Below, piece after piece: positions 14,517 through 17,733 of a stretch of DNA of 64,000 nucleotides. A program made the translations under genes and the position numbers. The stretch lies in NCBI RefSeq assembly GCF_003334385.1, contig NZ_QOWN01000009.1; one strand, 5' to 3'. The DNA is from Escherichia coli. GTDB taxonomy: Bacteria > Pseudomonadota > Gammaproteobacteria > Enterobacterales > Enterobacteriaceae. How positions within the stretch are numbered: position 1 is the stretch's first letter; every line of letters begins with the position of its first letter. The notes beneath the pieces were generated by a model, which was not told the origin of the DNA, did no database searches, and saw only the letters and a program-made list of their open reading frames with translations.

Positions 14517-15666
14517 CGTTCCGGTAGCTCAGGTGTTGCAGGCGCTGGCTGAACAGGAGAAGTTGAACCTGGTCGTGTCGCCAGACGTCAGCGGTACGGT
14601 GTCGTTACATCTAACAGATGTTCCCTGGAAGCAGGCACTACAAACTGTAGTGAAAAGCGCCGGACTGATAACGCGGCAGGAAGGCAACATTCTCTCAGTG
14701 CATTCCATTGCCTGGCAGAATAACAATATCGCCCGCCAGGAGGCGGAGCAGGCGCGGGCGCAGGCAAATCTGCCGCTGGAAAATCGCAGTATAACCCTGC
14801 AATACGCCGACGCGGGAGAACTGGCGAAAGCGGGGGAGAAGCTACTGAGTGCCAAAGGGAGTATGACCGTCGATAAACGCACCAATCGCCTTTTGCTACG
14901 AGATAACAAAACGGCGTTAAGCGCGCTTGAACAGTGGGTAGCGCAAATGGATCTGCCGGTCGGGCAGGTTGAGCTGTCGGCGCATATTGTCACCATTAAT
15001 GAAAAAAGTTTGCGTGAGTTAGGCGTGAAATGGACGCTGGCCGATGCGCAACACGCTGGTGGCGTTGGGCAAGTCACCACGCTTGGTAGCGACCTCTCCG
15101 TAGCGACGGCGACAACGCATGTCGGTTTTAACATTGGGCGCATCAACGGACGCTTGCTGGATCTTGAGCTTTCCGCGCTCGAACAAAAACAGCAGCTGGA
15201 TATTATCGCCAGTCCGCGTCTGCTGGCCTCACATCTTCAGCCTGCCAGCATTAAACAGGGGAGCGAAATTCCATATCAGGTTTCCAGCGGGGAAAGTGGC
15301 GCGACGTCGGTGGAATTTAAAGAGGCCGTCCTGGGGATGGAGGTCACGCCCACGGTGTTACAAAAAGGTCGCATCCGGCTGAAATTACACATCAGCCAGA
15401 ACGTTCCGGGGCAGGTGCTACAGCAGGCCGATGGCGAAGTGCTGGCGATTGATAAGCAGGAGATCGAAACGCAGGTCGAGGTCAAAAGCGGAGAAACGTT
15501 GGCGCTGGGCGGCATTTTTACCCGTAAAAATAAATCGGGTCAGGATAGCGTACCGTTGCTTGGCGACATTCCCTGGTTCGGGCAATTATTTCGTCATGAC
15601 GGAAAAGAAGATGAACGACGCGAGTTAGTGGTGTTTATCACGCCACGACTGGTTTCCAGTGAGTAA
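14428..15666 (+). CDS. hofQ: secretin (PilQ/ComE family) HofQ
   Basis: 412-aa ORF with signal peptide MKQWIAALLLMLIPGVQAA and C-terminal secretin domain; overlaps hofP by 89 nt. Confidence 0.93.
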   Translation: MKQWIAALLLMLIPGVQAAKPQKVTLMVDDVPVAQVLQALAEQEKLNLVVSPDVSGTVSLHLTDVPWKQALQTVVKSAGLITRQEGNILSVHSIAWQNNNIARQEAEQARAQANLPLENRSITLQYADAGELAKAGEKLLSAKGSMTVDKRTNRLLLRDNKTALSALEQWVAQMDLPVGQVELSAHIVTINEKSLRELGVKWTLADAQHAGGVGQVTTLGSDLSVATATTHVGFNIGRINGRLLDLELSALEQKQQLDIIASPRLLASHLQPASIKQGSEIPYQVSSGESGATSVEFKEAVLGMEVTPTVLQKGRIRLKLHISQNVPGQVLQQADGEVLAIDKQEIETQVEVKSGETLALGGIFTRKNKSGQDSVPLLGDIPWFGQLFRHDGKEDERRELVVFITPRLVSSE

Positions 15667-16066
15667 ACAGCCGTAAAAGCGGTAATGTTTTTACGCTGAA
15701 CGTGTTTCATCTATTTGACGCGCGCAGGTATTTAGCATACAAGGAGTACCGATTTGAGAGTTGGTGCTCTTCGCTGCCTGCGTTCCATGATGATGATTTA
15801 TCATTCAGGCGGCATTTTGCTGTCTTTTTTACGCTAATCTTACCCGGTGATTTATCGCCAGAGCGGTGGTAGCAAGGCAGCGCGCTTGCAGCGACCAGAT
15901 ATGCAGAGGGATGGGTGATTTATTCAGTTGCCAAACCCGCTGGAGTATTGAGATAATTTTCAGTCTGACTCTCGCAATATCTTATGAGGTTTCAGTTCAT
16001 GTCCTGCGGCGCTCTCTGAGCGAAGCGGGTTTATCATTAACGAATAGTCTTAGTAGTACCGAAAAA

Positions 16067-16588
16067 ATGGCAGAGAAACGCAATATCTTTCTGGTTGGGC
16101 CTATGGGTGCCGGAAAAAGCACTATTGGGCGCCAGTTAGCTCAACAACTCAATATGGAATTTTACGATTCCGATCAAGAGATTGAGAAACGAACCGGAGC
16201 TGATGTGGGCTGGGTTTTCGATTTAGAAGGCGAAGAAGGCTTCCGCGATCGCGAAGAAAAGGTCATCAATGAGTTGACCGAGAAACAGGGTATTGTGCTG
16301 GCTACTGGCGGCGGCTCTGTGAAATCCCGTGAAACGCGTAACCGTCTTTCCGCTCGTGGCGTTGTCGTTTATCTTGAAACGACCATCGAAAAGCAACTTG
16401 CACGCACGCAGCGTGATAAAAAACGCCCGTTGCTGCACGTTGAAACACCGCCGCGTGAAGTTCTGGAAGCGTTGGCCAATGAACGCAATCCGCTGTATGA
16501 AGAGATTGCCGACGTGACCATTCGTACTGATGATCAAAGCGCTAAAGTGGTTGCAAACCAGATTATTCACATGCTGGAAAGCAACTAA
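16067..16588 (+). CDS. aroK: shikimate kinase I
   Basis: 173 aa from [25 protein letters not shown] (Walker A); ATG at 16067; 240-aa ORF is a spurious upstream extension. Confidence 0.96.
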
Positions 16589-16644
16589 TTCTGGCTTTAT
16601 ATACACTCGTCTGCGGGTACAGTAATTAAGGTGGATGTCGCGTT

Positions 16645-17733
16645 ATGGAGAGGATTGTCGTTACTCTCGGGGAACGTAGTTACCCAATTACCATCGCATC
16701 TGGTTTGTTTAATGAACCAGCTTCATTCTTACCGCTGAAATCGGGCGAGCAGGTCATGTTGGTCACCAACGAAACCCTGGCTCCTCTGTATCTCGATAAG
16801 GTCCGCGGCGTACTTGAACAGGCGGGTGTTAACGTCGATAGCGTTATCCTCCCTGACGGCGAGCAGTATAAAAGCCTGGCTGTACTCGATACCGTCTTTA
16901 CGGCGTTGTTACAAAAACCGCATGGTCGCGATACTACGCTGGTGGCGCTTGGCGGCGGCGTAGTGGGCGATCTGACCGGCTTCGCGGCGGCGAGTTATCA
17001 GCGCGGTGTCCGTTTCATTCAAGTCCCGACGACGTTACTGTCGCAGGTCGATTCCTCCGTTGGCGGCAAAACTGCGGTCAACCATCCCCTCGGTAAAAAC
17101 ATGATTGGCGCGTTCTACCAACCTGCTTCAGTGGTGGTGGATCTCGACTGTCTGAAAACGCTTCCCCCGCGTGAGTTAGCGTCGGGGCTGGCAGAAGTCA
17201 TCAAATACGGCATTATTCTTGACGGTGCGTTTTTTAACTGGCTGGAAGAGAATCTGGATGCGTTGTTGCGTCTGGACGGTCCGGCAATGGCGTACTGTAT
17301 TCGCCGTTGTTGTGAACTGAAGGCAGAAGTTGTCGCCGCCGACGAGCGCGAAACCGGGTTACGTGCTTTACTGAATCTGGGACACACCTTTGGTCATGCC
17401 ATTGAAGCTGAAATGGGGTATGGCAATTGGTTACATGGTGAAGCGGTCGCTGCGGGTATGGTGATGGCGGCGCGGACGTCGGAACGTCTCGGGCAGTTTA
17501 GTTCTGCCGAAACGCAGCGTATTATAACCCTGCTCAAGCGGGCTGGGTTACCGGTCAATGGGCCGCGCGAAATGTCCGCGCAGGCGTATTTACCGCATAT
17601 GCTGCGTGACAAGAAAGTCCTTGCGGGAGAGATGCGCTTAATTCTTCCGTTGGCAATTGGTAAGAGTGAAGTTCGCAGCGGCGTTTCGCACGAGCTTGTT
17701 CTTAACGCCATTGCCGATTGTCAATCAGCGTAA
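16645..17733 (+). CDS. aroB: 3-dehydroquinate synthase
   Basis: 362-aa [34 protein letters not shown]... Confidence 0.96.

Follow-up and report, generated by a model that had tools for sequence, protein, structure and literature searches.

A 27-codon reading frame behind a Shine-Dalgarno-like motif in the hofQ-aroK spacer of Escherichia coli is best read as an accidental ORF over a putative distal promoter of the aroK-dam operon

Does a short open reading frame (ORF) preceded by a consensus Shine-Dalgarno (SD) motif between hofQ and aroK of Escherichia coli encode a small protein, or does it lie by chance over an element of another kind? We addressed this question in a window of 64,000 nucleotides (contig NZ_QOWN01000009.1), which includes the E. 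coli hofMNOPQ / aroK-aroB-damX-dam region. The stop codon of hofQ is located at 15664-15666 and the start codon ATG of aroK at 16067, leaving a spacer of 400 bp in E. coli. In the ORF listing, AAGGAG (15741-15746) is followed by a gap of 7 nt and by TTG at 15754-15756, and the frame then runs to the stop codon TAA at 15835-15837; its 27 codons read (M/L)RVGALRCLRSMMMIYHSGGILLSFLR. A preliminary description of this DNA had pointed out this frame, and its positions for AAGGAG, TTG and TAA as well as the count of 27 codons all check out, as does the distance of ~230 bp upstream of aroK (we measured 229 nt from the end of the ORF). The same description called the spacer long for an operon junction, which is not borne out, as hofQ-aroK spacers span ~260-565 bp in all 80 Enterobacterales loci compared here. 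With two conserved promoter-like blocks, the spacer is, as far as the alignments tell, a promoter region and not an operon junction. The interval between hofQ and aroK is without any annotation in MG1655 (NC_000913.3) and in PGAP-annotated genomes. All features are collected in Table 1. A window position x is converted into MG1655 coordinates (minus strand) as 3535131 - x, and this conversion was confirmed by the Term-seq entry 3519136, which lies 72 nt upstream of aroK according to its authors and equals window 15995.

Table 1. Features of the hofQ-aroK spacer, in positions of the 64,000-nucleotide window
Feature	Position	Strand	Basis or remark
Overlapping 56-codon GTG ORF in another frame, ismORF NC_008253.1_ORF.79884 (Fesenko et al.)	15702..15872	+	reads across block A
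Conserved non-coding block A, TTTGACG-N8-GAW-TTAGCW-TACAAGG-NN-TASCGAWTTGAG	15714..15760 (47 bp)	+	alignments
-35 hexamer TTGACG of the putative distal promoter P1	15715..15720	+	exact in 80/81
Alternative -10 candidate TAGCAT	15733-15738	+	A-11 and T-7 present; 12 bp from -35
-10-like element TACAAG(G)	15738..15744	+	invariant in 80/81
AAGGAG, SD-like hexamer overlapping the -10-like element and discriminator	15741..15746	+	AAGG invariant
Inverted repeat / 5′ hairpin GUACCGAUU-UGAG-AGUUGGUGC	15746..15767	+	folds; TTG in stem and loop
27-codon TTG-initiated ORF	15754..15837	+	frame present; judged an accidental reading frame
Stem-loop GCUGCCUG...CAGGCGGC (15773-15813) with tail AUUUUGCU to the RNA end at 15821	15773..15821	+	Term-seq, fold
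Alternative small hairpin AGGCGGCA-UUU-UGCUGUCU (15807-15825), then U6 (15825-15830)	15807..15830	+	terminator-like hit
Candidate proximal promoter P2, TTGCCA-18-(TG)GATAAT	15928..15957	+	10/12 match with TG (promoter scan)
aroK leader RNA with hairpins 15965-15995 (invariant) and 16003-16029 (covarying)	15962..16066	+	alignments, folds

The cue that drew attention to this frame is out of the ordinary for one spacer. When the spacer was shuffled 20,000 times with preserved dinucleotides, the probability of an exact AAGGAG with a start codon 4-9 nt further on that opens at least 27 codons was P = 0.006, and with any 5-mer SD the same test gave P = 0.076. Across the intergenic regions of one genome, a rough extrapolation, which is not a computed value, would give ~10 or more comparable cases. 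Within the 64-kb window, 6 of the 8 pairs of AAGGAG and a start codon open ORFs of at least 100 codons, and hence the use of the SD cue in the preliminary description was reasonable. What a small-protein gene needs at its 5′-end, a start codon and an RBS motif at proper spacing, is present (AAGGAG, 7 nt, TTG, 27 codons). The ORF could then be translated in E. coli, either into a young lineage-specific micropeptide or into a leader peptide that chooses between the hairpins 15773-15813 and 15807-15825 with its U6. The consensus motif with its 7-nt spacing, the behavior of the window pairs and the low P value all favor a micropeptide, and the ORF is also nearly fixed in E. coli, where 5419 of 5426 genomes match its region with at least 99% identity. 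However, this high identity extends over the whole spacer (at least 99% in 5425 of 5426 complete E. coli genomes) and is not specific to the ORF. Moreover, the ORF is unannotated in MG1655, a record which we believe already includes small proteins validated from profiling. On the evidence given here and below, we regard translation in either form as improbable.

To compare the reading frame with the nucleotides, a scan for AroK was used to collect 80 Enterobacterales loci, in all of which hofQ lies upstream of aroK. Salmonella is represented by one sequence in this set, the E. coli variants are a sample of three, and Shigella and E. fergusonii are absent from the comparison. Alignments of the spacers showed two deeply conserved blocks with a variable segment between them, the first of which is block A. 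The preliminary description had proposed weighing conservation of the frame against that of the nucleotides, and the outcome is that the nucleotides of the block are kept and the frame is not, even within Escherichia. A homologue of the TTG is present in 59 of 78 Enterobacterales sequences, and in other Enterobacterales the frames opened by it are 4-56 codons long and have unrelated sequences. In E. albertii, a 1-nt deletion shifts the frame and cuts it to 11 codons. The three sampled E. coli variants carry a change of TTG to TTA, a frameshift by one additional T and R10P (Arg10Pro), respectively, so that 3/3 are disruptive or non-synonymous; the E. albertii frameshift and the E. coli isolates with TTA or a frameshift argue against a micropeptide. 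Most of the ORF, its body, falls in a segment that is restricted to the group of Escherichia, Citrobacter and Salmonella and contains many indels. An exact look-up of the 27-aa peptide in a collection of ~15 billion predicted proteins gave no match.

The pattern of substitutions is also not that of a coding sequence. Column conservation in block A was 0.84/0.80/0.86 by codon phase, compared with 0.97/0.99/0.73 for aroK in the same genomes, and there was no 3-nt periodicity in the per-column conservation of block A. Together with the disruptive variants, these values answer in the negative the check for coding selection that had been suggested earlier. For the 27-codon ORF we thus found neither a frame, length and amino acid sequence conserved in related species, nor substitutions of the coding type with few indels, since periodicity is missing and the body is rich in indels. 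The motif that makes the start site look convincing is no better preserved. Only AAGG is fixed, as the end of TACAAGG (80/81), and the two bases after it are AG in 38 sequences, GT in 21, TT in 9, TG in 8, GG in 3 and AT in 1, so the full AAGGAG is present in 38 of 80. With regard to the segment that holds the ORF body, we observed that the two promoter blocks of Escherichia, Citrobacter and Salmonella are separated by additional sequence of 110-250 nt (15768-15915), and that an extra stretch of this size is also found, independently, in some Erwinia and Pantoea; in most other Enterobacteriaceae and genera the blocks are ~46-101 nt apart.

What then is conserved in block A? Of 81 sequences, 80 carry an exact TTGACG-N17-TACAAGG, and the genera that share it range from Escherichia to Yersinia, Serratia, Pectobacterium, Erwinia and Pantoea. 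The distance between the two motifs is 17 bp in 80/80, and the first 8 bases of this spacer are variable. TTGACG agrees with TTGACA, the -35 consensus of sigma-70 promoters, at 5 of 6 positions, and 17 bp lies within the range of 16-18 bp in which such promoters have a spacer of fixed length and free sequence. TACAAG agrees with TATAAT at 4 of 6 positions, having G at -7 instead of the usual T, and was unreported by the promoter scan. A fixed TTGACG, 17 bp of free spacer and a TA-rich heptamer together are, as read from the alignments, the signature of a sigma-70-type promoter. We therefore favor, with moderate confidence, the explanation that block A is a distal sigma-70-type promoter of the aroK-aroB-damX-dam-rpe-gph-trpS operon and that the mini-ORF is accidental. 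Conservation, invariant spacing, the missing coding signature, an RNA 3′ end and predicted folds are the observations behind this explanation; from them we infer promoter activity, the position of the transcription start site (TSS) and the origin of the 3′ end at 15821. Block A and the second block are separated by a freely variable distance of 46-341 nt, as expected of independent modules.

In this explanation, the distal promoter, composed of TTGACG at -35, the invariant 17-bp spacer and TACAAGG, would act in tandem with the proximal promoter at 15928-15957. Either of the two -10 candidates would place +1 at ~15745-15752; the SMRT-Cappable-seq files of Yan 2018 list nothing at this locus. 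Because of this position, the SD would be absent from the distal-promoter RNA, or be represented by its last base or two at most, and the SD-like motif would function as a DNA signal at or upstream of +1. The TTG would lie 2-9 nt from the 5′ end of that RNA, and the 27-codon frame would be a by-product of a lineage-specific leader segment. This would speak against a micropeptide: its SD overlaps the predicted -10/+1 region and would be missing from the RNA of the distal promoter, and read-through from hofQ, which is expected to be rare, would be the sole source of an RNA carrying the SD. Moreover, TTG is a weak start codon and is located inside a predicted hairpin. Conservation in block A covers the downstream half of the spacer and the first ~10 bases of the expected transcript, which is more than a plain promoter needs. 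A regulator site may therefore overlap the promoter, or the RNA may have a function of its own.

Data from other laboratories and species are consistent with a promoter at this place. In RNA-seq of Yersinia pseudotuberculosis, a 72-nt feature over block A reaches 1006 TPM, compared with 20 for hofQ and 867 for aroK, and this jump from 20 to 1006 TPM indicates that transcription rises sharply at block A. In Salmonella, Tn5 insertions in the aroK-hofQ spacer reduced survival on dried pistachios and phenocopied insertions in dam and damX, and insertions within aroK or hofQ themselves were not selected there (PMC7242855). The phenotype of the spacer insertions is compatible with loss of the operon promoters or of an RNA element of the spacer. 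As for the literature on the aroK promoter, leader or intergenic region, we found the name aroKp1 and the plural 'aroK promoters', and nothing beyond these; both expressions are consistent with two promoters. The tandem aroK promoters (aroKp1/aroKp2) resemble the arrangement described here, as the hofQ-aroK spacer likewise contains two promoter-like blocks, ~3.5 and 3.25 kb upstream of dam; that block A is one of the published promoters is an assignment that we infer. The dam promoters P1/P2, which we take to be those of Lobner-Olesen et al. 1992 and to lie ~3.5 kb upstream of dam, would fit two promoters upstream of aroK. Block A differs from a typical promoter in that its -10-like TACAAG has no T at -7 and that its conserved stretch is longer than a core promoter.

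Other readings of the block as a DNA element were examined by eye against consensus sequences. On the minus strand, no acceptable -35/-10 pair was seen in block A, and none of the sigma-28, sigma-32, sigma-54 and sigma-E promoter consensus sequences matched. For TrpR, TyrR, CpxR and MarA/SoxS boxes, the resemblance in block A was partial at most and the spacing was wrong.

A second ORF also lies across block A, and it may be asked whether this one is the real gene. It uses another frame, its E. coli member has 56 codons and its Yersinia member (ORF.22445) 23 codons, and it was proposed to be a syntenic microprotein predicted to bind AroK. In the data of Fesenko et al., it is listed as a conserved syntenic microprotein and intergenic smORF, the Yersinia member belongs to the MicroProt6K set with an AlphaFold-Multimer ipTM+pTM of 0.81 against AroK, and RNA over the E. 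coli member is induced in E. coli 536 with a log2 fold change of 4.2 in acetic acid and 3.4 in prolonged growth. A few GenBank records of E. coli also call it a 'hypothetical protein'. However, the apparent conservation of this ORF is that of block A, where its third codon positions vary no more than the other two. In Pectobacterium and Erwinia the frame is interrupted by an in-frame TAG (TTAGCGA), and the members of 23 and 56 codons have N- and C-terminal parts that are not alignable. The ORF spans the -35 and -10 elements and would thus be mostly off the RNA made there, and the RNA-seq signal is equally well explained by a promoter. We consider it highly improbable that this ORF is the gene; block A appears to have produced the other-frame call of a "conserved syntenic microprotein" in the published screen as well. 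The rise of RNA over 15702-15872 in acetate and prolonged growth suggests that the distal transcript is induced by stress or in stationary phase.

A mapped RNA end also bears on the 27-codon frame. The Term-seq data of Adams et al. 2021 (PMC7815308, supplementary file 1) contain a 3′ end at MG1655 3519310 on the minus strand, found in all three conditions and classed as 'orphan', and no 3′ end is assigned to hofQ. This end corresponds to window position 15821, which is within the ORF and 14 nt before its stop codon, so that an RNA ending there would carry the ORF without a stop codon. This speaks against a micropeptide. The peptide reading of the preliminary description, a small hydrophobic peptide, is hence left unsupported: frame, length and sequence are not conserved, the bases that define the SD vary, and an RNA 3′ end falls inside the ORF. 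Of its three readings, the fallback of a chance ORF is the sole one that fits the evidence. Our best interpretation of the 27-codon frame is an accidental ORF rather than a small-protein gene, and its translation is unlikely.

The RNA around this end is predicted to be structured. An RNA of 76 nt from 15746 to 15821 has a predicted dG of -27.6 kcal/mol (z = -3.3). In its 5′ hairpin (15746-15767) the right arm varies among species and pairing is kept in the folds of Escherichia, Citrobacter and Salmonella; the hairpin was not evident in folds of Yersinia or Serratia. The stable stem at 15773-15813, the tail AUUUUGCU and the 3′ end at 15821 in three conditions are what an intrinsic terminator would show. 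The alternative small hairpin shares GGCGGC with the larger one, so the two are mutually exclusive. In E. albertii, a hairpin of the small 15807-15825 type is the predicted structure, and in one E. coli variant the T run after the small hairpin is longer. The hairpins of the 15773-15821 region are not conserved outside Escherichia and are absent from most genera that keep block A. At the same place, S. enterica subsp. arizonae has a different hairpin with a U tract, and most genera have none. Rfam covariance models gave no hit at E <= 1 in 15000-16800 on either strand.

According to the distal-promoter explanation, the E. coli RNA started at block A would fold into two hairpins and a fraction of it would end at 15821. 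This end would arise from intrinsic termination behind the 15773-15813 stem, or else from trimming of RNAs that had terminated at U6. The remaining transcripts would read through to the proximal promoter region and aroK. The distal promoter thus probably gives a short, structured and partly terminated leader RNA, as far as this can be modeled from the folds and the mapped end. The 15821 end could also stem from transcripts that read through from hofQ, and such transcripts would carry the SD. It is a tentative possibility, and rather an unlikely one, that a discrete RNA of ~70 nt (~15746/15751-15821) exists in E. coli, with its first ~12 nt conserved in Enterobacterales, and has a function, either as a regulatory RNA or in regulated attenuation of the aroK-dam operon. 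If this were true, the ~70-nt RNA and the near-invariant aroK leader would together control the expression of shikimate kinase and Dam methylase at the RNA level, in a way not characterised before. In a weaker variant, translation of the mini-ORF on rare read-through transcripts would switch the two competing hairpins.

Alternatively, the same end could belong to the upstream operon. Block A would then be a regulator site or an element of the hof 3′-UTR, the hairpin at 15773-15821 with its U tract would be the terminator of hofMNOPQ, and the mini-ORF would again be accidental. The 15821 end lies 155 nt after the hofQ stop codon and is an 'orphan' with no other 3′ end listed for hofQ (PMC7815308). 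Moreover, 15746-15767 forms, as DNA, the inverted repeat GTACCGA-N8-TCGGTAC, which is perfect in Citrobacter, and the -10-like hexamer in block A is imperfect. These points are outweighed, in our judgment, by several others. TTGACG at a fixed 17 bp from TACAAGG in 80/81 sequences is a -35/-10 signature, a T-run with a weak hairpin is already found directly after hofQ at 15670-15692, RNA in Yersinia is ~50-fold higher over the block than over hofQ, and the terminator-like hairpin of E. coli is absent from most genera that keep block A. We thus consider it unlikely, although less so than translation of the ORF, that block A is the tail of the hof operon. With regard to the end of hofQ itself, the weak hairpin (15670-15692) and T-run right after its stop codon occupy 15670-15697 (GCCGTAAAAGCGGT AATGTTTTT). 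As Escherichia, Citrobacter and Salmonella all keep the T-run, they are probably the hof operon terminator. In the same interval, GTAAAAGCGGTAAT resembles the tandem GTAAA box of CpxR with a spacing that is one base short; control of aroK by CpxR is reported in the literature.

The two competing hairpins and the 3′ end raise the question of attenuation, because a leader peptide could attenuate transcripts of the distal promoter or of read-through before aroK, and the ORF is indeed overlapped by two alternative hairpins, one of them with U6, and by a mapped RNA 3′ end. The trpL, pheL, thrL and hisL attenuators share with this locus a short ORF upstream of a biosynthetic gene, alternative hairpins, a U run and a 3′ end of leader RNA. 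However, they differ in the features that make them regulatory. Tandem codons of the regulated amino acids are not found here: the frame has one Tyr, one Phe and no Trp codon, hence no run of aromatic codons (Phe, Tyr or Trp), and its sole run, MMM, is not kept even in Citrobacter. In contrast to these systems, there is no run of codons for an end product, the peptide and frame are unconserved, and the RBS motif falls in the predicted -10/+1 region. The two competing hairpins and the 15821 end are present in E. coli, but the hairpins are restricted to Escherichia. Judged by regulatory codons and peptide conservation, the 27-codon ORF thus falls outside the leader-peptide attenuator family, and the proposal of a leader ORF of the aroK operon in the preliminary description is not supported, given the lack of an aromatic codon run, the unconserved frame and the RNA 3′ end inside the ORF.

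A comparison with other short elements of E. coli leads to the same assignment. Validated small proteins of E. coli found with retapamulin or Onc112 (Weaver et al. 2019; Stringer et al. 2021) are likewise shorter than 50 codons, intergenic and preceded by an SD-like motif; the present ORF differs from them in having no MG1655 annotation and an unconserved frame. The short 5′-UTR and 'orphan' RNAs of Adams et al. 2021 are also comparable, as they include the 15821 and 15995 ends, both of which directly follow a stable hairpin upstream of aroK (PMC7815308). Neither RNA was characterised by these authors, and aroK is absent from their main text. As it was put forward, the finding amounts to a chance ORF of an ordinary kind that overlies an element of a known type. 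In the best reading of these sequences, the locus would work like a control region in which tandem promoters serve the aroK-dam operon and the leader is short and partly terminated.

This assignment matters in two ways. Counted as a small-protein candidate, the ORF would add one false positive to the lists of E. coli sORFs, and block A would be an example of a conserved promoter imitating an RBS and start codon. The spacer is also the control region of an operon that sets the levels of Dam methylase and shikimate kinase, and the depth to which the distal block and the aroK leader are conserved suggests that its regulation goes beyond two plain promoters. This deep conservation of block A and the leader gives no evidence of a novel type of system. 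What novelty remains is a block A longer than a core promoter, a possible RNA of ~70 nt and an almost invariant aroK leader.

The second conserved block is the proximal promoter, an excellent one by its sequence, and this leader lies downstream of it. TTGCCAAA-N16-GATAAT of P2 is exact in 81/81 sequences, and its TSS is expected at ~15962-15964. The leader following P2 is almost invariant across Enterobacterales, from Escherichia to Erwinia and Pantoea. In the proximal-promoter RNA, the invariant 5′ hairpin at 15965-15995 (CUGA.UCUC ... GAGG..UCAG) sequesters AUGAGG. The Term-seq 3′ end at 3519136 (window 15995) was scored as not Rho-dependent (PMC7815308) and falls exactly at the 3′ foot of this hairpin. 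Every species also has a hairpin at 16003-16029, which varies in sequence and length (for instance CCUGC/GCGGG, UCCGGCG/CGCGGA, CCUGUCC/GGACGGG) and is followed by (G)UUUAUCAUUAACGAAU; its covariation was judged by eye. RNAalifold reported the invariant hairpin only on the aroK leader, as the variable stem had been misaligned by MAFFT, and per-sequence folding was used instead. A small upstream ORF at 15984-16019, ATGAGGTTTCAGTTCATG..., has 11 aa in E. coli and 21 codons in Citrobacter. Its ATG is AAG in several genera, and frame and length differ; this variation makes its conservation look structural rather than coding. Moreover, the 8-mer AGTACCGA occurs both at 15745-15752, in block A and the left arm of the 5′ hairpin, and at 16055-16062, in the translation-initiation region of aroK. 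The right arm of that hairpin (15759-15767) could in principle pair with the aroK initiation region, and by a rough estimate an 8-mer would be shared by chance with a probability of ~7%.
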